From an uncultured bacterium (GTDB lineage: Bacteria; Actinomycetota; Humimicrobiia; Humimicrobiales; Humimicrobiaceae): a DNA stretch of 41,254 nt. Each line of letters opens with the position of its first letter. The stretch's first letter is position 1. The stretch covers positions 1 to 41,254 of the forward strand of contig CBEVGD010000002.1 of NCBI GenBank assembly GCA_965549355.1, in the 5' to 3' direction. Position numbers and translations under genes: made by a program. Below, in pieces: positions 3,386 through 11,314 of this stretch. The notes beneath the pieces are model-generated. The model did no database searches, was not told the origin of the DNA, and worked only from the letters and a program-made list of their open reading frames with translations.

Positions 3386-4159
3386 ATGATCATGGAAAAC
3401 AATTATATTATAAACATAGAAGATATTAAGAAAACTTACCGGCTTGAAACGGTAGAAGTAAAAGCACTGCGCGGTGCAAACCTTAAAATATCTGAAGGAG
3501 AATTTGTCTCCATAATGGGACCATCCGGTTCCGGCAAATCTACTCTTATGAATATTATAGGATGCCTTGATGTCCCGACTTCGGGCAGCTATATTCTGGA
3601 TGGTATTGATGTAAGTAAAATAAGCGATAATCAGCTTGCGCCAGTGAGAAATAAGAAAATAGGCTTTGTATTCCAGACCTTTAACCTTCTCTCGCTGGCC
3701 AATGCGATCCACAATGTAGAGCTTCCGCTTATTTATTCTGAAAATGGCGGCAATAAAAGGAGAAAGATATTTGATGCCCTGCAGGCCGTGGGACTAAAGG
3801 GTAGAGAAAAACATAAGCCCAGTGAATTATCAGGCGGAGAGAAACAGAGAGTGGCAATAGCGAGAGCACTTGTCAACGAACCTTCCATAATTCTGGCAGA
3901 TGAGCCTACGGGAAATCTGGACTCTGTAACCGGGGAGGAGATAATGGCTATCTTTCAGAAGCTGAATAGAGAAGGGAAAACAATACTGCTTGTGACCCAT
4001 GAGCTGGAAATAGCAAAACATACAAATAGGATCATTTATTTAAGAGATGGCACTATCTCTCACCAGGAAAAGATAAAAGCTCCTATAGATGCAGAGGAGA
4101 AGCTTGAGCAGATGCCAAGATTAGAAGATAAAATAAATTCAAGGATAGAGGAAGGGTAA
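3386..4159 (+). CDS. ABC transporter ATP-binding protein (MacB/LolD-type)
   Basis: Walker [10 protein letters not shown], signature [15 protein letters not shown], Walker [13 protein letters not shown]-loop LVTHE. Confidence 0.92.
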
Positions 4160-4165
4160 GAAATT

Positions 4166-5410
4166 ATGAGAGGACTATTTGAAAATGTAAAAATTGCTTT
4201 TAAGTCATTATATATAAATAAGTCAAGATCCATTTTAACAATGCTTGGAATAATTATTGGAGTGGGAGCCGTAGTCGCCGTACTGGCTATTGGTGACGGA
4301 GCAGAACAATCGGTTCTGCAGAGCGTTCAGGAGATGGGTTCTAATCTGATCACCATAACACCCGGAGGAGAGAAGGATGAAGAGGGACCGCCGATGATGC
4401 GTGATAAAGAGGAGAGACTGCTTGCTGAAGGGGAACTTAAGATGGAGGATGTAAAAGCTATAGAAGGGGAAGCTACTTTGATAAATGAAATTTCTCCGAT
4501 GATATCAGGATCTTCAACTGTATCTTATCAGGATAAAAATTCACAGGTCACAGTATCTGCATCAACAGAGAAAATTGTGAAGCTGCAGAATTTTCAAATA
4601 AATGAAGGTTTATTTTATAGTTCAAGCGATGTAGCAAATTCCTCCAGTGTTGCTGTTTTGGGTCCGACAGTAGCAGATGATATCTTTGGCAAAAGAGATC
4701 CTATGGGAAAAATAATAAAAATAGATGGAAAAAATTTTACAGTTATTGGCATTACCGAACCGAGAGGTGCAGATATAAGGGGGATGGATCAGGATAATAC
4801 GATCTATATCCCTGTTACAACAGCACAGACCAAGCTTTATGGGTCCGACTCTTTTGATATGATAATAGCTCAAGCGCAAAGTGAAGAGGTAATTGATGAA
4901 GCCTGTAGTGAAATAGAAGAAATACTAAGAGCCGAGCATAATATCGGATCAGGAGATAGCGATGATTTTTCTGTCCGAAACCAGTCCCAGATGGTAGACA
5001 TGGTCGACACGATACTGGGCATATTTACGATTACCCTGTCAAGCATCGCTGCAATATCACTGCTTGTAGGGGGTATCGGGATTATGAATATAATGCTTGT
5101 ATCGGTTACTGAGAGAACCAGAGAAATTGGTATTAGAAAAGCAGTAGGGGCCAAAAATAGGGATATATTGGTTCAGTTTTTAACAGAAAGCGTGGCTCTA
5201 AGCATTACCGGAGGTGCTATAGGAATTGGTTTTGCAATTTTAATAACTATAATAATAGGCATGGTAACCACGCTTATTAGTGCTGTTATTACTCCTTATC
5301 CCATTATTCTGGCCATATCTTTTTCAACTGCAATAGGACTTACATTTGGTATTTATCCTGCTATGAGAGCAGCAAGGCTAAATCCAATAGATGCATTAAG
5401 GCATGAATAA
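4166..5410 (+). CDS. ABC transporter permease, MacB/FtsX family
   Basis: N-terminal TM, an extracytoplasmic domain of about 240 aa, and a C-terminal FtsX block (GGIGIMNIMLVSVTERTREIGIRKAVGA...; tail NPIDALRHE). Confidence 0.88.
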   Translation: MRGLFENVKIAFKSLYINKSRSILTMLGIIIGVGAVVAVLAIGDGAEQSVLQSVQEMGSNLITITPGGEKDEEGPPMMRDKEERLLAEGELKMEDVKAIEGEATLINEISPMISGSSTVSYQDKNSQVTVSASTEKIVKLQNFQINEGLFYSSSDVANSSSVAVLGPTVADDIFGKRDPMGKIIKIDGKNFTVIGITEPRGADIRGMDQDNTIYIPVTTAQTKLYGSDSFDMIIAQAQSEEVIDEACSEIEEILRAEHNIGSGDSDDFSVRNQSQMVDMVDTILGIFTITLSSIAAISLLVGGIGIMNIMLVSVTERTREIGIRKAVGAKNRDILVQFLTESVALSITGGAIGIGFAILITIIIGMVTTLISAVITPYPIILAISFSTAIGLTFGIYPAMRAARLNPIDALRHE

Positions 5411-5522
5411 ATATAGTTAGAATTTTAAGAAATTTGGAGTGTATTAGGAATCGTACTTTTATGAATATTATTTTAAGGTAGCTATCGCAATGTAATAGTG
5501 AATATTCTGGTGAAAGCCTGCC

Positions 5523-5840
5523 TTAATCCTTATAGTTAAATATATTCTTAATCATTTCTCTTTCTATTGTTCTATAAATATAGTAATCCGAATCGATTGT
5601 GATAATCTCTTTTATTCTTAATCTTTCAGATATAACAATCAGTGATGCATTAGTGAGATCCATTGGTATATCAGAGTATTTCTCCGACAGCTGAATAATT
5701 CTATCTAATTCAGCAGAGTCTATATCCTTAATTCTTAACCCGCCCACTTTGATCCATTTTAAAAAATCTATTTGTGTGTTTATATTAAAATCAAGCATAT
5801 GGCATACTTCTGTTATAACGGGCCAGCTGGTTGTAAGCAT
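5523..5840 (-). pseudogene. 5'-truncated PIN-domain (VapC-like) toxin remnant
   Basis: TTSWPVITEVCHML...YSDIPMDLTNASLIVISERLRIKEIITIDSDYYIYR matches the middle and C-terminal parts of PIN proteins. The N-terminal ~40 aa carrying the first catalytic Asp is missing. In-frame sequence upstream of 5840 is antisense of the neighbouring remnant. Confidence 0.55.
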
Positions 5841-5841
5841 T

Positions 5842-6087
5842 CCATCATATGCCTTAGAGATTTTAGGGATCCTGGCCAGACTTGGCTATAGGAATGAACG
5901 AATGAAGGAAGCCATAGATCTGTTGATCTCAAAACAGGACGAACAGGGAAGATGGAAACTTGAAAATACATTCAATGGCCGTTTCCAGGCAAGGATCGAA
6001 CATAAGGGTAAACCAAGTAAATGGATTACTCTGAATGCACTCAGGGTATTGAAAAATATTTATGGCGATGCTTTCCAGGATGTTTGA
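5842..6087 (+). pseudogene. 5'-truncated prenyltransferase/squalene-cyclase-repeat protein remnant (C-terminal ~80 aa only)
   Basis: SYALEILGILARLGY...AIDLLISKQDEQGRWKLEN...HKGKPSKWITLNALRVLK resembles the last repeat of terpene-cyclase-like proteins. The first 31 codons of the tracked ORF (5749-5841) are antisense read-through of the PIN remnant. Confidence 0.5.
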
Positions 6088-6132
6088 TAATATTATCGAT
6101 AGCTCCAAAGATTCAATCTTCATATAATCTCT

Positions 6133-6267
6133 TTACTTTACCTTATCATTTATTTCAAAAACTTCTTCAATTGATTTCCCGAATACCTTTGTGATCCTGT
6201 GAGCCAGGATAGGAGAGGGGCCATATTGGCTCTGATTAAGGGCTGCAATAGTATATCTTATGAATTT
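6133..6267 (-). pseudogene. 5'-truncated XRE-family HTH regulator remnant
   Basis: The minus-strand frame reads KFIRYTIAALNQSQYGPSPILAHRITKVFGKSIEEVFEINDKVK*, which is the recognition helix and C-terminus of small Cro/C1-type regulators. There is no start codon, and an in-frame TAA sits at 6268-6270. Confidence 0.45.
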
Positions 6268-6473
6268 TTATAGTTTTTTTAAAAAATTCGTATAAAAAAC
6301 TAAAATTTTTATTATTATTGTGTTATACTTACACAAGATAAATGTAATATTTATCGTATATAATTGTATAAGTGCTATCTAAAGTAGAAATTATTCGTAG
6401 CACAGTCTCTAACAGATCAGTAGTAATAGCAACTGTTTTTTATTAAAAGAGATTAAAATTAAAGGGGGTTGTG

Positions 6474-6545
6474 ATGAAGAAATTTTATAGAATCTTAATG
6501 ATCCTGGGATCTCTCGTAGGACTATGCTCCACAGTCAGGTGGTAG
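6474..6545 (+). CDS. Possible 23-aa hydrophobic peptide (MKKFYRILMILGSLVGLCSTVRW), or the N-terminal stub of a lost lipoprotein gene
   Basis: A strong SD AAAGGGGG (6461-6468) lies 5 nt before the ATG at 6474. The peptide has a basic N-terminus, a hydrophobic core and a Cys. It is followed by the hairpin at 6558-6610. It is below the length cut-off of the ORF track. Confidence 0.25.
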   Translation: MKKFYRILMILGSLVGLCSTVRW

Positions 6546-6557
6546 AATTTTCCCAAT

Positions 6558-6610
6558 AAATGGGGCTAGCTAAAAAACCGGGCGTCCCTGGTAATAAGTT
6601 GGCCCCATTT
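6558..6610 (+). other. Stem-loop (9-bp stem AAATGGGGC/GCCCCATTT) followed by a T-rich tract
   Basis: 6558-6566 pairs with 6602-6610. The loop contains a small GGG-cgt-CCC hairpin. TTTTTTTATTTT follows about 20 nt downstream. It could terminate the small ORF transcript. Confidence 0.3.
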
Positions 6611-6812
6611 ACATTTCAAAGTGAATTTTTTTATTTTCTTAAGAAGGTTCAGAACAAAGGACCAAAAGATAGGAAATATAATTTCAGTTTTAAATATTGA
6701 AATTAACTCCAAGATTGTATTCATTATACTTCTAAAATTTTTTCTTCACAGGATTTTGATTTACTTATTAAAATAATCTTTTTCTATTCAGAATAATCAA
6801 TAAATATGTATA

Positions 6813-7133
6813 ATGATTAATATGGCAGCATTATATATAATAATAGCTGTACTGGCAGGTGCAGTGATAATACTTTATATCTATTCCAGGGAAAAGCCTA
6901 AGGACCTGGAAAAGGAAATAGCAAGGCTCAGGAGATCCATTGTCTCGGAGGGTCTTAATTTTGAGCAGATTGAATACAGGATAGTAAGCCTCAAGGAAGA
7001 TATTGCCGGCAAGAAGAAACTGATAAGCAGCGGGAAGATGGCCGGGAGCGATATGGAGAAATATCTTGAGGAAACCGAAGACAGGCTTGACGGGATACTG
7101 GGAGAGTTTTTAAGCGATAAAACTATAAAATAG
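6813..7133 (+). CDS. Small membrane-anchored coiled-coil protein, function unknown
   Basis: One N-terminal TM (AALYIIIAVLAGAVIILYIY), then a charged heptad-like tail. The stop lies 5 nt before the sigma gene. An alternative start at ATG 6822 sits 7 nt after a TATAAT (6809-6814). Confidence 0.55.
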   Translation: MINMAALYIIIAVLAGAVIILYIYSREKPKDLEKEIARLRRSIVSEGLNFEQIEYRIVSLKEDIAGKKKLISSGKMAGSDMEKYLEETEDRLDGILGEFLSDKTIK

Positions 7134-7138
7134 TATTA

Positions 7139-7831
7139 TTGATGGTAATCTACAGAGAAACACTTGAGGAAAGGGTCATTAAAGCCAGAGGCGATAATAG
7201 CCTTTTGAGCGCCCTTATAAAAGAATTCAAACCTTTCATCGCCAGTATCGCCCAGAAGAAAGTCGGACGGTATCTGGAATACGGCATTGATGATGAACTT
7301 TCTGTCGGACTTATTGCCTTCAAGGAGGCGGTAGATTCATTTAAAGAAGGCAGGGGAAGGTTTCTATCCTTTGCCAGGATGGTAATATCCATGCGGCTCA
7401 TAGATCATTTCAGGAAGCAGATAAGGGCCGTTGAAAACACTACAGATGATGATCCGGAAGATGATTTATGGGACAGGCAGTCAATAGAGCTATATCAGAT
7501 GGAGAATGAGGAAGAGGATAGGAAGGCTGAAGTCATACAGTATTCTGCTTTGCTTTCGAAGTGGGACATAGACCTTTCAGAGCTGGTGAAGGCTTCGCCG
7601 AGAAGGGAAGATCTTAAGGAGCAGTATCAGAAGATAGCAAGGATGATTGCCGGAAACAGGCATTTGCTTGAGATCCTGATGGAGACAAAGCGGCTTCCCA
7701 TAAAGGAAATAGAAAAAGAAGTGTCCATACACCGTAAAAAGCTGGAGCGGGGACGTATATATATAATAGCTATGGTCCTGGCAATTATTTCCGGATTTAG
7801 CTATATCAGTATTTGTCGGGGTGGGAGTTAA
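7139..7831 (+). CDS. sigI: SigI-like (sigma-I family) RNA polymerase sigma factor
   Basis: FKPFIASIAQKKVGRY...DDELSVGLIAFKEAVDSF...ARMVISMRLIDHFRK (region 2-like), plus a sigma-I-type C-terminus (SPRREDLKEQYQKIARMI...KRLPIKEIEKEVSIHRKKLERGRIYIIAMVLAI). An RsgI_N-type gene follows immediately. Confidence 0.78.
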   Translation: MMVIYRETLEERVIKARGDNSLLSALIKEFKPFIASIAQKKVGRYLEYGIDDELSVGLIAFKEAVDSFKEGRGRFLSFARMVISMRLIDHFRKQIRAVENTTDDDPEDDLWDRQSIELYQMENEEEDRKAEVIQYSALLSKWDIDLSELVKASPRREDLKEQYQKIARMIAGNRHLLEILMETKRLPIKEIEKEVSIHRKKLERGRIYIIAMVLAIISGFSYISICRGGS

Positions 7832-7832
7832 T

Positions 7833-8588
7833 ATGAGAGCAGTAGTAATAGAAATACATAAAAATCACTGCATCGCTGTAACGCCTGACGGCAGGTTTGT
7901 AAAGCAATCTATCGATCAGGGAGAGTTTGAGATAGGCGATGAGATAATGGTAGAGGCAAGGCATCTGGCCCGGAGAAGGGATTGGACAAGGACCCTTGCC
8001 ATTGCCGCTGCCGCCGCTATGGTCATCGGTCTGGGTTCCTGGGGGATGTTCAGGATATCTGGACGGTATAAGCCTTCTTCAAATGATGGCATGGTTGCTG
8101 AGTCCGGGATCATGGAAGAGGAAAAGGCAGCCGGTGATGAGGTTATGACGGTTGCTACAGAACAAGAGACTTCCGGAGAAGAAGCCGGGATGACAGATAT
8201 ATCAGAGGATAGAGCGGATTTTGCTGCAGAAATAGAACGGATGGAAGGTATTGTGACAGGTACGGGAGAAGTGGATGCGGTTATTGCCCTGAAGATAGCA
8301 AATATCGGGCAGCCGGCAGAGATTGTTGCGGGAAACCTGTTGCTTCTGTACTGGGCAAAGGAGGCAGAGAAAAACATGGAGCTATTGTTTGGAGCAGAGA
8401 TGCTTGATCCGGATCTTAGCTTTACTGGAAAAATCAAAGTATCTATGCTTTTTGATGACGGGAGCATTGCCGGGGAAGATATGTTCTCCATGAGTAAATT
8501 CAGCGGCGAGGATAAGATTCAGGAGTTTATTGCATTTGAATCCGGGGCCTATGATATGAGTATAAAGATAAACGGTATTTTTGAATAA
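7833..8588 (+). CDS. rsgI: RsgI-like anti-sigma-I factor with an uncharacterised extracytoplasmic domain
   Basis: The N-terminus MRAVVIEIHKNHCIAVTPDGRFVKQ...GDEIMV is the RsgI_N fold signature. There is a single TM (LAIAAAAAMVIGLGSWGMF). The ATG at 7833 lies 1 nt after the sigI stop and is preceded by GGGTGGGAG. The ORF track offers GTG 7821 as an alternative start. Confidence 0.75.
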   Translation: MRAVVIEIHKNHCIAVTPDGRFVKQSIDQGEFEIGDEIMVEARHLARRRDWTRTLAIAAAAAMVIGLGSWGMFRISGRYKPSSNDGMVAESGIMEEEKAAGDEVMTVATEQETSGEEAGMTDISEDRADFAAEIERMEGIVTGTGEVDAVIALKIANIGQPAEIVAGNLLLLYWAKEAEKNMELLFGAEMLDPDLSFTGKIKVSMLFDDGSIAGEDMFSMSKFSGEDKIQEFIAFESGAYDMSIKINGIFE

Positions 8589-8681
8589 TTTGACTGCCTG
8601 CCTCACTATGGGAAACTACACTTCCGTATATATATTACAGATCAAGATCGAACCTATTTAATTAAAGCAAGGGGGATTGCT

Positions 8682-9962
8682 ATGAAAAAGAGATCTGCAA
8701 AAGTCATTATATTAGTATTAACGGCCGTCTTTTCTTTATCATGTCTTACAGTATTTACCGGCTGCATCGGTGCAGGTACCAGTGCGGCAGGTATTATATT
8801 GGTGTCCACCGAAGAATCCGATGAGATGGCAGACAATGTAAGCCGGGAGCTTATTGGAGCCAATAATAAGTTTGCCTTTGATATCTTCAGGGAACTGCTT
8901 GCTGAAGATAAGGGCAAAAATATCTTTATATCTCCCTTTTCTATAACTACGGCTCTTGCAATGGCATATAATGGAGCTGAAACTGATACGAAAGATGCTA
9001 TGGCGGAGGTCCTTGGTTTTTCAGGACGGGACCTTGATGACCTCAATAGTAATTTTTCACAGCTTCTGGTAATCATCCAGAGTGCAGATCCTGATATTGA
9101 GCTTGATATTGCAAATTCGGTATGGAAGAGGTCGGGTTTTGAGGTGGAAGAGGATTACCTTGATAGAGTGGAACAGTATTACTATAGTACGGTGCAGGAT
9201 CTGGACTTCTCAAGGAGTGATGCTCCGGATATCATAAATAAATGGATAGAAGATGCGACCAGGGGAAAGATCGATAAGATGATAAATGAGATCGATGCAA
9301 TGGTCATGATGTACCTTATAAATGCGATCTACTTTAAAGGAGACTGGACCTATCCTTTTGATGAGGAACTTACAAGGACAGATGATTTCTATCTGGAGGA
9401 CGGCAGTACGGTGGATGTGGAGATGATGGAAAACTATGGAGATTATAAATATAGCGGAGATGGAGATATTGAGGCAGTGAGGCTTCCTTATGGGCGCGAT
9501 ATGGTTTCGATGTATATTATGCTGCCTGCTGAGGGTACCGGCCTGGACTGGGCCATAGAAGAAATAACAGGAGATAGCTGGATTGGGTTTATAGACTCTT
9601 TTGCTGAAAGGGAATTAAATCTGAGGATGCCAAGGTTTGAGATCGAATACGGCATCAAAGACCTATTGCCGCCGCTTACCAGACTCGGGATGGGAATAGC
9701 CTTTACTGATAGGGCCGACTTCGGCGGGATGCATCCGGATCTCTATATATCCAGAGTCGACCATAAGGCAGTAATAGAGGTAAATGAAAAGGGAAGCGAA
9801 GCGGCAGCCGTTACTGTTATAGAGATGAAGATAACTTCTGCTCCGGCTGAACCTATAGAATTTACCGCAGACAGGCCCTTCTTCTTTGTGATCTCGGACG
9901 ACAGGACCGGGACCATACTCTTTATGGGTAAAGTCGCAAATCCTGCAGAGAGCTCCGATTAG
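8682..9962 (+). CDS. Serpin (inhibitory type), predicted lipoprotein
   Basis: Signal peptide with lipobox VFTG-C. Serpin core (NIFISPFSITTALAMAYNGA, LINAIYFKGDW), hinge EKGSEAAAVT, and C-terminal DRPFFFVISDDRTGTILFMGKV. The SD AAGGGGG precedes the ATG. Confidence 0.92.
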   Translation: MKKRSAKVIILVLTAVFSLSCLTVFTGCIGAGTSAAGIILVSTEESDEMADNVSRELIGANNKFAFDIFRELLAEDKGKNIFISPFSITTALAMAYNGAETDTKDAMAEVLGFSGRDLDDLNSNFSQLLVIIQSADPDIELDIANSVWKRSGFEVEEDYLDRVEQYYYSTVQDLDFSRSDAPDIINKWIEDATRGKIDKMINEIDAMVMMYLINAIYFKGDWTYPFDEELTRTDDFYLEDGSTVDVEMMENYGDYKYSGDGDIEAVRLPYGRDMVSMYIMLPAEGTGLDWAIEEITGDSWIGFIDSFAERELNLRMPRFEIEYGIKDLLPPLTRLGMGIAFTDRADFGGMHPDLYISRVDHKAVIEVNEKGSEAAAVTVIEMKITSAPAEPIEFTADRPFFFVISDDRTGTILFMGKVANPAESSD

Positions 9963-10020
9963 AGCCATTATATTATTTTTAATAATATCTTTTTGATGAT
10001 TTTAGAAAGGGGTGGATGAA

Positions 10021-11283
10021 ATGGCAAAAGCAAAAATAGCACTAACAGCAATAATAACGGCCATTTTTCTTGCAGGGATCATATTTCCAATCGGTTGTGC
10101 CAGAGGCAGCAGTGCAGCCGATAGTGTGCCGGTTGTATCGGAAGAGAGGTCCGATGAGCTTATAGAGAATCTTGACAGGAGCCTGGTGGATGCCAATACA
10201 AGATTTGCATTTAATATATTCAGGGAGCTTGTAATCGAGGATAAGGATCAGAATATTTTCATATCACCGCTATCCATCCTTCTGGCCCTTGCCATGACAT
10301 ATAATGGGGCCGCGGAGGATACAAGTCTTGCCATGGCTGATGCAATGGAGTTTTCGGGTATGGACCTTGAAGAGCTGAACCAGGGGTTCGGCGATCTTAT
10401 GGTGAGCATCCTTAATGCAGACAGCGAAGTGGAGATGAGTATTGCAAATTCAATATGGCAGAGGATGGACTTTGATGCTAAAGAGGATTTTATAGATATA
10501 AATAAGAAATATTACAACTCCGGGGTAAGAAAGCTTGATTTTTCTGATCCAAAGGCTGTTGATACTATAAATGACTGGATATCGGATGCCACCAAAGAAA
10601 AGATAACAGAGATGCTTGATGAGACCCCCCCGACTGTTGTGATGTATCTTATAAATGCAATATATTTTAAGGGCGACTGGACATATCCCTTTGAAGAGGC
10701 TGCCACTCATGATGATGATTTTTATCTGGAAGACGGAAGCACAAAGAAAGTGCCCATGATGAATATACAGGAGCATTTCCAGTATGGAAGAGGAGATGAT
10801 TATGCGGTAATAAGGCTTCCATACGGCCAGGAGAAGTTTTCGATGTATATAGTCCTTCCTGATGAGGGGACCGCTATTGACAGCATTGTAGGAAGTTTGG
10901 ATGAAGAGAAGTGGAACGGGATCACCGGCAGCCTATCAGACAGCGAGGTAATACTGGCTATGCCAAAGTATAAGATGGAATATGGTGTAAAGCTTTTAAA
11001 TGATAGCCTGACGGATCTGGGAATGGGCATAGCTTTCGGACCCGGGGCTGATTTTTCTGGTATCAGCGAAGGGATATTTATCTCAAAGGTAATACATAAG
11101 GCTGTTATCGAGGTCAATGAGAAGGGAAGCGAGGCGGCAGCTGCCACGGTTGTGGCGATGGCAGAATCTGCAATGGTCGCTGATGAAATGGTGGAATTCA
11201 TAGTCAATAGGCCCTTTATATTTACAATATCAGATGACAGGACAGGCAGTATTCTCTTTATGGGTAAGGTGATGGAACCCTAG
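10021..11283 (+). CDS. Serpin paralogue (inhibitory type), predicted lipoprotein
   Basis: Lipobox FPIG-C. Serpin core (NIFISPLSILLALAMTYNGA, LINAIYFKGDW), hinge EKGSEAAAAT, and NRPFIFTISDDRTGSILFMGKV. The ATG at 10021 follows GAAAGGGG. The ORF track starts at GTG 10012. Confidence 0.92.
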   Translation: MAKAKIALTAIITAIFLAGIIFPIGCARGSSAADSVPVVSEERSDELIENLDRSLVDANTRFAFNIFRELVIEDKDQNIFISPLSILLALAMTYNGAAEDTSLAMADAMEFSGMDLEELNQGFGDLMVSILNADSEVEMSIANSIWQRMDFDAKEDFIDINKKYYNSGVRKLDFSDPKAVDTINDWISDATKEKITEMLDETPPTVVMYLINAIYFKGDWTYPFEEAATHDDDFYLEDGSTKKVPMMNIQEHFQYGRGDDYAVIRLPYGQEKFSMYIVLPDEGTAIDSIVGSLDEEKWNGITGSLSDSEVILAMPKYKMEYGVKLLNDSLTDLGMGIAFGPGADFSGISEGIFISKVIHKAVIEVNEKGSEAAAATVVAMAESAMVADEMVEFIVNRPFIFTISDDRTGSILFMGKVMEP

Positions 11284-11314
11284 GAGCCCGGGCCGGTTCC
11301 CGGACAGGCTCCCG
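11283..11314 (+). repeat. Copy 1 of the 19-nt motif GTTCCCGGACAGGCTCCCG, embedded in a GC-rich hairpin right after the serpin stop
   Basis: GGAGCC (11283-11288) pairs with GGCTCC (11307-11312), and CGGG (11289-11292) pairs with CCCG (11299-11302). No U-run follows. The motif core (11296-11314) is identical to the reverse complement of 32010-32028. Confidence 0.6.

Follow-up and report, generated by a model that had tools for sequence, protein, structure and literature searches.

The 41,254-nt stretch of DNA analyzed here (contig CBEVGD010000002.1 of GenBank assembly GCA_965549355.1, from an uncultured bacterium; referred to at its full length as the window) carries, in one tight block of plus-strand genes, a sigma-I-type sigma factor gene (sigI), the gene for a short anti-sigma-I factor (rsgI), and two serpin genes. 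Comparison with related loci suggests that this module is probably a compact sigma-I/RsgI switch with one or two inhibitory serpins, anchored in the membrane, as its local output. The wiring from sigma-I to the serpins is likely, judging from a conserved sigma-I-type promoter that lies directly after rsgI.

A conserved sigma-I-type promoter follows rsgI and faces the serpin genes

The gap between rsgI and serpin 1 contains two sequence blocks that together resemble a sigma-I promoter. In relatives, the motif reads ACC(C/T)C(G/A), then 18 to 19 variable bases, then CG(T/A)ATAT, which we summarize as RCCYCR-N18/19-CGWATAT. It starts within about 12 nt 3' of the rsgI stop codon, faces the serpin gene or genes, and is present in every related locus that has sequence at this position (L001 to L013, L015 to L023, L025, L045, L081, and L097; L numbers denote related loci throughout). 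The experimentally derived sigma-I consensus of the Bacillales is ACCCCC--AA-15N-CGAA----T (PMC4711584), and the -10 element of clostridial sigma-I promoters is CGWA (PMC10575876, PMC6056542). When compared by sequence, the post-rsgI motif fits both. The canonical clostridial arrangement (A-tract, 12 to 15 nt, CGWA) was also looked for by eye in positions 8589 to 8681 and was absent; the Bacillales ACCCCC-N19 spacing fits.

The pattern was found once in the 41-kb window, compared with 0.03 occurrences expected by chance. Between distant loci the spacers separating the blocks cannot be aligned, while the sequences of the blocks, their position, and their spacing persist. Since the spacers differ completely from locus to locus, the two promoter blocks appear to be under selection. 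The same scan, covering -200 to +150, found the motif in none of approximately 65 serpin genes from loci that lack sigI. In the window, the predicted transcription start of the serpins falls near 8639.

The first-pass annotation, which had proposed the serpins as the output of the sigma-I/RsgI pair, pointed to the lack of a terminator hairpin between rsgI and the serpins. A consensus scan likewise called nothing terminator-like in the gap after rsgI or in the one separating the serpins, but this description understates the 93-nt gap, which houses the conserved sigma-I-type promoter. That promoter had not been spotted, and it supports the proposed coupling. The serpins would have a sigma-I promoter of their own and hence would not rely on read-through alone.

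The sigI-rsgI-serpin arrangement is conserved in related loci

A serpin gene is the next gene after rsgI in L001, L002, and L004 to L010, in L012, L013, L015, and L097 (69 to 56% SigI identity), and in ten further loci from a metagenome survey. The order sigI-rsgI-serpin persists among loci whose SigI identity ranges from 92 to 56%, with RsgI identity as low as about 23%, and the upstream flanks vary by locus. Gene order is therefore retained in every close relative, a point on which the first-pass annotation had said its proposal could fail, and it is conserved across an Actinomycetota clade, probably "Candidatus Humimicrobiia."

In the metagenome survey, 80 serpin loci were scanned with hidden Markov models (HMMs) for SigI and RsgI; 26 of these had too little upstream sequence to judge. 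Among serpins scoring at least 600 bits against the clade HMM, nine had sigI-rsgI upstream and three did not. Below 600 bits, the pair accompanied a single serpin, a truncated orthologue, and was missing from 41. Because these 41 more distant serpins have no sigI or rsgI nearby, the association is, on this sequence comparison, a trait of this lineage and not of bacterial serpins generally. The three high-scoring exceptions are L024, discussed below, and two loci of 54 to 56% GC that belong to another lineage and whose serpins lack the N-terminal cysteine.

Two natural variants bear on the organization of the module. In L016 (positions 6001 to 8497), a more distant sigI-rsgI pair sits in another genomic context, and the sequence ACCTCA-N19-CGTATAT follows rsgI. 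Here the promoter precedes a gene for a DUF4349 lipoprotein instead of a serpin, which indicates that, in this subfamily, the general plan is a promoter placed after rsgI that drives whichever gene follows. In L015 (positions 4333 to 5362), a Polbeta-type nucleotidyltransferase gene and a gene for a 118-aa protein are inserted between the serpin gene and the RNA recognition motif (RRM) gene that follows it. The insertion 3' of the serpin shows that the serpin-RRM junction can be broken, and the rsgI-serpin junction is kept. The inserted pair looks like a toxin-antitoxin pair.

SigI is a sigma-I factor and RsgI has a predicted all-beta ectodomain

The product of 7139 to 7831 was classified as SigI and not as another sigma-70 subgroup, in agreement with its first identification. 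It scores 216.3 bits against TIGR02895 (cutoff, 185) over residues 17 to 223 and matches ten PRK08311 SigI submodels with E values of 1e-31 to 1e-67, which lie below the narrower cutoffs of those submodels. Pfam finds Sigma70_r2 only and no sigma-4 domain. In a phmmer search of the PDB, SigI6 (8i24_F; E = 1.3e-23) and SigI1 (8i23_F; E = 3.4e-22) were matched over residues 13 to 219, which include both the N- and the C-terminal domains, and the isolated SigI1 C-terminal domain (6ivu_B) matched residues 127 to 218. The protein thus has the layout of the family, a sigma-2 domain followed by a SigI-specific C-terminal domain in place of sigma-4. Homologues numbered 330 at E values of 1e-10 or lower. 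Three of the four residues with which SigI6 reads CGWA (C-14/G-13) are retained (R98, D101, and R104), and the fourth position is arginine in the window SigI versus His171 in SigI6, which is used in the minor groove (PMC10575876).

RsgI has the basic features of its family: an N-terminal RsgI_N domain, a single predicted transmembrane (TM) helix, and a gene located 1 nt 3' of sigI. The RsgI_N strands at the N terminus were modeled as structured by AlphaFold. Beyond the membrane, an acidic linker predicted to be disordered precedes a folded ectodomain, which AlphaFold2 (AF2) models with 8 to 9 strands and no helices. Across the RsgI group the linker spans 45 to 59 residues, consists of 26% Glu, 18% Ala, and 7% Met, and has a net charge of -11 to -20.

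Characterized RsgI proteins have a juxtamembrane alpha/beta/alpha periplasmic (SEAL) domain that undergoes Asn-Pro self-cleavage (PMC10328401, PMC10327162). Self-cleavage is essential for signaling in RsgI6 of Clostridium thermocellum (PMC10328401), whereas a noncleaving mutant of Bacillus subtilis RsgI still signals (PMC10327162). In the window RsgI, modeling predicts no SEAL or periplasmic domain; the low-complexity acidic linker and the all-beta domain take its place. Neither sequence nor fold searches matched it to the periplasmic domains of RsgI proteins, and an RsgI profile matched nothing in the PDB at an E value of 1 or lower. The authors of the SEAL study hypothesized that there are nonautoproteolytic RsgI homologues that rely on external site-1 proteases (PMC10327162), and the modeled window RsgI is a candidate for such a homologue.

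Fold searches were performed with a model of the C-terminal domain only, as the disordered half of the full-length model degraded the TM-scores. With this model, the beta-sandwich had no significant structural relative, no family, and no convincing carbohydrate-binding module (CBM). Its marginal matches were to MATH/SPOP, SadB, and DUF1425 (TMq, 0.45 to 0.53; E values of 7e-4 or higher), and matches to CBM6 folds were poorer (TMq, about 0.3). On these matches, the first-pass annotation's view that the ectodomain is not of a carbohydrate-binding type is a tentative one. Conserved surface motifs of the domain include AGNLLF-YW and LSFTG. It diverges fast, with 45 to 53% identity versus 67 to 82% for SigI. 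A word-based search returned only 19 full-length RsgI homologues, and a search with the C-terminal domain returned only 10 cluster representatives among 1.84 billion. Apart from one stand-alone protein, P0143, only this RsgI group has the beta-sandwich. This 146-aa protein is lipoprotein-like (MIIILTQLTIMFLLGC...) and contains hardly more than the RsgI C-terminal beta-sandwich, which means that the sensor domain exists outside anti-sigma factors, too.

Both serpins appear to be inhibitory lipoproteins

Serpins 1 and 2 score 392 and 395 bits, respectively, against PF00079 and cover profile positions 2 to 370 of 370. The closest solved structure to serpin 2 is miropin (5ncs; E = 1.5e-77), and conserpin is also among the best PDB matches. 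Inhibitory serpins carry a hinge of small residues at P15 to P9, E-[EKR]-G-[ST]-x-A-A-A, which is needed for loop insertion. The hinge is EKGSEAAAVT in serpin 1 and EKGSEAAAAT in serpin 2 and is invariant across 12 homologues, suggesting that both serpins are of the inhibitory type. The reactive center loops (RCLs) of the two proteins differ. That of serpin 1 reads EKGSEAAAVTVIEMKIT/SAPAEP, with EMKIT/SAPAEP at its core, and that of serpin 2 reads EKGSEAAAATVVAMAES/AMVADE; counted canonically, P2-P1 would be I-T for serpin 1 and E-S for serpin 2 (the slash then follows P1). In serpin 2 orthologues the RCL core is strongly conserved as EKGSEAAAATVVEM-x-ES/AMPVEE (EM-x-ES-AMP-VEE), and this implies a conserved target.

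The serpins had been described as lipoproteins. Their signal-peptide-like N termini (ending in VFTGC in serpin 1 and FPIGC in serpin 2) and cysteine (C26), which follows a hydrophobic stretch and is invariant in 10 of 10 aligned serpins, point to this, but the lipobox positions are loose, with FTG, PIG, STG, SYG, GAG, FSS, CS, and KQ found at residues -3 to -1 before the cysteine. On these features both serpins are putative lipoproteins.

Serpin 1 is a paralogue of serpin 2 (51% identity) that has been inserted between the promoter and serpin 2. Besides the window, only L005 has an orthologue, and L001 retains an N-terminal remnant of 77 aa. Serpin 2 orthologues, at 59 to 82% identity, sit 3' of rsgI in related loci, and by this comparison serpin 2 is the ancestral, conserved output gene. 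The 58-nt gap between the two genes contains neither the promoter motif nor a terminator, and cotranscription of serpins 1 and 2 is inferred on that basis. In L028 and L029, which are contigs of 54 to 56% GC from another organism, serpins 60 to 62% identical to serpin 2 adjoin an HtpG-like gene; these serpins lack the N-terminal cysteine and have no sigI or rsgI nearby. They may reflect horizontal movement of this serpin type.

The sigI operon probably has a constitutive, housekeeping-type promoter

Directly 5' of sigI lies a small gene whose product has one N-terminal TM helix followed by a charged helical region. Profile searches assigned the product to no family above cutoff. By tblastn, the gene occurs at this position in one subclade (L001 to L012, L017, L018, and L025) and is absent in L013, L015, L016, L019 to L023, L045, and L081. 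A block reading ATGTATAAT-N7-ATG is kept in all loci having the small gene, and none of these loci has a Shine-Dalgarno sequence before it. The first-pass annotation had started the gene at 6813; that ATG is ATA in most relatives and falls inside the conserved TATAAT, which makes ATG 6822 the more likely start. Because TATAAT ends 7 nt 5' of the conserved ATG 6822 (window positions 6809 to 6824) and no Shine-Dalgarno sequence is present, the transcript of the small gene, sigI, and rsgI is probably leaderless. The conserved housekeeping-type promoter before the small gene also implies that these three genes are probably made constitutively. The sigI operons of Bacillus and Clostridium are autoregulated, whereas here there is no sigma-I site upstream of sigI. 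An autoregulatory promoter is typical of the SigI family but does not strictly define it. As a candidate autoregulatory site, a loose N22-spaced match upstream of the operon in L002 and L003 was rejected, as it is not conserved in L005 or the window.

Proposed mechanism and alternative explanations

In the mechanism that we propose, RsgI would keep sigma-I bound to the membrane for as long as the ectodomain of RsgI stays in place. Because RsgI has no predicted self-cleaving domain, an outside protease would be needed, and it would make the site-1 cut in the linker, which is exposed. Sigma-I would next be freed by a site-2 protease and would fire the promoter after rsgI. Lipoprotein serpins would build up at the surface of the membrane and block the serine protease that is attacking, and this inhibition would close a negative-feedback loop. 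That proteolysis is the signal, as the first-pass annotation had suggested, is plausible but tentative and less likely than not; the predicted lack of a SEAL domain and the exposed acidic disordered linker lend it indirect support. The fuller picture, in which RsgI is a protease-activated receptor whose linker is bait for extracellular serine proteases and whose signal is shut off by the serpins once sigma-I has been freed, must be regarded as rather doubtful. The Glu/Ala/Met-rich linker does resemble the serpin loop EM-x-ES-AMP-VEE in composition.

Several observations weigh against this mechanism or the wiring beneath it. The -35 element of the window, GCCTCA, has only three of six consensus positions, while most relatives have ACCCCG. 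No conserved CCYC..CGWA motif lies 5' of the small gene or sigI, and no protease or site-2 protease gene was found among the 20 neighboring proteins scanned in the 41-kb window. The conserved RCL argues for a fixed and possibly endogenous target, not for varied foreign proteases. Acidic linkers may simply suit life in saline or alkaline surroundings. Downstream, the RRM gene and pyr operon are also syntenic in the clade, so that gene order by itself is weak evidence and could reflect inheritance. In L024, a close relative of L013, a serpin occupies the same site before the RRM-pyr block although sigI and rsgI are missing, and the pairing is therefore not obligatory. L099 (positions 4086 to 5860; GCA_016932375.1) and L100 have sigI-rsgI directly before pyrR and neither a serpin nor an RRM gene, which indicates that sigma-I need not act on serpins alone. 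The L099 RsgI is 270 aa long with the same C-terminal domain, and a -10-like remnant, CGTATAGTAT, is all that is left of the promoter, with no -35 block. All of the wiring, finally, is read from motifs and comparison.

The serpin-less loci favor the main rival to protease sensing, which is an equally open alternative: RsgI may be a sensor of envelope or cell wall stress like that of B. subtilis, with the serpins as one protective member of a wider sigma-I regulon and with proteases not being the signal. Here the linker and the terminal domain would probe the wall, and stress would set off intramembrane proteolysis. As an account of the module this is likewise rather doubtful. B. subtilis RsgI senses through a disordered extracytoplasmic region (PMC9732909, PMC10327162), and L099 and L100 retain sigI-rsgI and the C-terminal domain with no serpin, so that sigma-I has other targets there. 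With 41 kb of the genome in view, further members of the regulon may lie elsewhere. The domain order is nevertheless unlike that of Bacillus, with the linker first, the folded domain second, and no SEAL domain, and a protease inhibitor gene is what follows the sole conserved sigma-I promoter seen so far. L024 also speaks against a general stress regulon. The deletion that removed its regulator (junction at 3764 to 3945; compare L013 positions 5820 to 6000 and 7400 to 7480) was precise: it also took the -35 block and, from the -10 block, the CG, and it fused the housekeeping-type promoter region of the sigI operon to the serpin leader. Loss of the regulator was thus compensated by rewiring the serpin specifically; that regulator and promoter are lost together and the serpin is rewired is what would be predicted for a dedicated regulator-target pair. 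The same locus bears on coincidental adjacency, in which the serpins would be ordinary neighbors, expressed by read-through or from a housekeeping promoter, and the intergenic block would serve another purpose. The synteny of the whole region, including RRM and the pyr operon, and the degenerate -35 element of the window would suit such a coincidence. The blocks, however, match the sigma-I consensus in sequence and spacing, strictly co-occur with sigI/rsgI, occur in none of the serpin loci that lack sigI, and were removed together with sigI-rsgI in L024, which makes coincidence very improbable.

The remaining alternatives concern the beta-sandwich and the serpins themselves. If the beta-sandwich bound an extracellular protein, peptide, or glycan, then binding or pulling could expose the linker, much as in the CBM-bearing RsgI proteins of clostridia. 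The domain is well folded (predicted local distance difference test [pLDDT] score, 90.5) with conserved surface motifs, its marginal similarity is to peptide-binding MATH domains and to SadB/DUF1425 lipoproteins (TMq, 0.45 to 0.53), and P0143 exists as a stand-alone lipoprotein version. We nonetheless consider ligand gating unlikely: the best fold match has an E value of about 7e-4, CBM matches reach a TMq of about 0.3, and the domain evolves fast, with no ligand that could be proposed. RsgI could instead sense serpin availability, if free serpin docked on the RsgI beta-sandwich and stabilized it, so that consumption of serpin in covalent complexes with proteases would make RsgI degradable and more serpin would be made. 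This idea is compatible with the conserved RCL, with the strict one-to-one linkage of the genes, and with both proteins being tethered on one and the same face of the membrane. It is purely speculative, however, and its chance of being right is slim, given that L016 has the same RsgI type with a nonserpin output and L099 has no serpin.

Gene calls, host, and genomic surroundings

The first-pass annotation's description of five tightly packed plus-strand genes was reproduced by the open reading frames (ORFs) (Table 1), as were the gaps between them of 5 nt (8 nt if sigI starts at ATG 7142), 1 nt, 93 nt, and 58 nt. Profile searches also upheld the assignments to SigI (TIGR02895), RsgI_N (PF12791), and Serpin (PF00079). 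For rsgI, databases call the 251-aa product and not the 255-aa form with the GTG start. The hairpin at 11283 to 11312, previously called strong, did not stand up as a strong terminator: at -17.6 kcal/mol it does not exceed shuffled sequence in stability (z = -0.12), and a U tract is lacking.

Table 1. Positions of the module's genes, signals, and RsgI segments in the window
Feature	Position	Strand	Details
Sigma-A-like promoter of the small-gene/sigI/rsgI operon	6787..6814	+	TTCAGA-16-TATAAT; 10/12 consensus matches
Small membrane-anchored coiled-coil gene	6822..7133 (alternative start, 6813)	+	103 aa; no family match
sigI	7142..7831 (alternative TTG start, 7139)	+	229 aa from ATG 7142
rsgI	7833..8588 (alternative GTG start, 7821, 255 aa)	+	251 aa; short anti-sigma-I factor
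RsgI_N	7836-7952 (residues 6-44)	+	PF12791, 41.5 bits versus cutoff of 25
TM helix	about 7983-8060 (residues about 51-76)	+	Predicted helix
Acidic disordered linker	8061-8231 (residues 77-133)	+	AF2 pLDDT < 50
C-terminal beta-sandwich	8232-8585 (residues 134-251)	+	Domain-only AF2 pLDDT 90.5, pTM (predicted TM-score) 0.83, all beta
Predicted sigma-I-type promoter for serpins	8600..8633	+	-35 GCCTCA 8600-8605, N19, -10 CGTA 8625-8628, TATA, T 8633
Shine-Dalgarno sequence before serpin 1	about 8669-8675	+	AAGGGGG
Serpin 1	8682..9962	+	426 aa
Serpin 2	10021..11283 (ORF from 10012/10021)	+	420 aa
GC-rich hairpin 3' of serpin 2	11283..11312	+	Possible but weak terminator; terminator scan made no call

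The module is preceded by a two-component system and an HlyD/MacB-type ATP-binding cassette (ABC) exporter. Downstream lie the gene for the RRM protein, a PyrR leader (Rfam RF00515), and pyrR-pyrB-pyrC-carA-carB, followed by pyrD/F/E-type genes, coaBC, metK, priA, fmt, and rsmB. We take this pyr-to-rsmB gene order to resemble that of mycobacteria and streptomycetes. The PyrR leader was the sole match in an Rfam scan, which gave none in the AT-rich region from 6100 to 6800. Between the ABC exporter and the module, positions 5523 to 6123 are AT rich (31 to 36% GC) and contain short ORFs that overlap, lie on both strands, and match nothing in Pfam; this segment differs in every related locus and marks a variable boundary of the conserved block. 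Just 5' of the module, the window shares with L002/L003 and L005 a conserved 24-codon ORF (MKKFYRILMILGSLVGLCSTVRW-stop; 6474 to 6548) with an AAGGGGG Shine-Dalgarno sequence and a conserved nested hairpin (ATGGGGC...CCAGGCGTCCCTGG...GCCCCAT; 6559 to 6610) followed by T-rich sequence. Both are absent from the other relatives and gave no match in Rfam. They could be a small hydrophobic peptide or toxin-like cassette.

The module had been noted as lying outside the Firmicutes. SigI/RsgI is described as widespread in Bacilli and Clostridia (PMC10575876, PMC6582324), and the host here is labeled Actinomycetota/"Candidatus Humimicrobiaceae," a family of the class "Candidatus Humimicrobiia." When species-representative genomes were scanned with the RsgI alignment, six metagenome-assembled genomes came up, every one of them titled Actinomycetota, and some SigI homologues are named in their sources "sigma-I factor [Actinobacteria bacterium]" or "[Candidatus Humimicrobiaceae bacterium]." Annotation pipelines thus already label these actinobacterial proteins as sigma-I.

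Relation to known systems and implications

SigI/RsgI of B. subtilis responds to cell wall defects and heat, with bcrC, mreBH, and lytE as targets. The module in the window shares with it a single-pass RsgI_N anti-sigma factor that is encoded directly 3' of sigI and has a disordered extracytoplasmic segment, and the promoter architecture ACCCCC-N19-CGAA-N4-T is likewise similar (PMC4711584). The order of the sensor parts differs. In B. subtilis RsgI, a self-cleaving SEAL domain is followed by a C-terminal disordered region (PMC10327162), whereas the RsgI described here is predicted to be SEAL-less, with the linker preceding a novel beta-sandwich. The sigma-I targets of Bacillus also lie elsewhere in the genome, while in this other phylum the only conserved sigma-I promoter stands directly 3' of rsgI and faces the serpin. 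With the biomass sensors SigI1 to SigI8 and RsgI1 to RsgI9 of C. (Acetivibrio) thermocellum, the module has in common the kind of sigma factor (SigI6 and SigI1 being the nearest structures), the CGWA -10 element, and the dedication of one sigma/anti-sigma pair to a specific extracellular function. Clostridial RsgI proteins, however, combine an autoproteolytic periplasmic domain with CBM, PA14, or glycoside hydrolase sensors and control cellulosomal targets (PMC10328401, PMC6056542), and the window RsgI is without these. The cellulosomal serpins of C. thermocellum were unchanged with substrate in an RNA-seq comparison, and we found no reported link between them and sigma-I.

The functional precedent for a circuit with a protease as input and a serpin as output comes from Bifidobacterium breve. 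According to the account in PMC8012564, which cites Alvarez-Martin 2012, the serpin operon of that organism lies next to a two-component system that proteases induce. In both cases a serpin of the Actinomycetota stands beside a dedicated envelope-signaling system. The B. breve regulator is a histidine kinase/response regulator pair, not a sigma/anti-sigma pair; the proteins and the lineage are unrelated to those described here, and induction is experimental there and predicted here.

Miropin of Tannerella forsythia is a surface lipoprotein inhibitor with a broad target range, and we know of no dedicated sigma/anti-sigma regulator for it. It comes from a different phylum, and its RCL reads EMVKTSS versus EMAESAM in serpin 2. 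In the RseA/DegS, RsiW/PrsW, and RsiV cascades, a regulated site-1 cut in the ectodomain is followed by site-2 intramembrane cleavage that frees the sigma factor. The release logic proposed here is the same. In the RseA/DegS-type cascades, a dedicated endogenous site-1 protease answers another signal; in the model for the window, protease activity would itself be the signal and an inhibitor would be the output.

Full-text literature searches found no paper tying serpins to sigma-I or anti-sigma control, in line with the first-pass annotation's view that a SigI/RsgI pair with serpin output had not been described. The sigma/anti-sigma family is known; what is new is the phylum-level setting, the predicted SEAL-less sensor, and the probable serpin output. 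SigI/RsgI has been studied in Bacilli and Clostridia only, where it reports cell wall damage or plant polysaccharides and uses a self-cleaving SEAL domain. The module extends it to a deep-branching uncultured class of Actinomycetota, to an RsgI that is naturally SEAL-less by prediction, and to surface serpins as a class of output. Since bacterial serpin regulation is almost unknown beyond Bifidobacterium, a small circuit that comprises a single promoter, a sigma factor with its anti-sigma factor, and a single inhibitor has the advantage of being testable, and it could be rebuilt in B. subtilis, an established heterologous sigma-I reporter host. If protease activity is indeed the signal, anti-sigma factors would be seen to sense by a new principle, and the module would offer a protease biosensor that is ready to use. 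Should RsgI prove to be a protease-activated receptor, sensor and inhibitor would form a self-contained feedback loop of the sigma/anti-sigma format, in a phylum whose sigma-I factors are unstudied.

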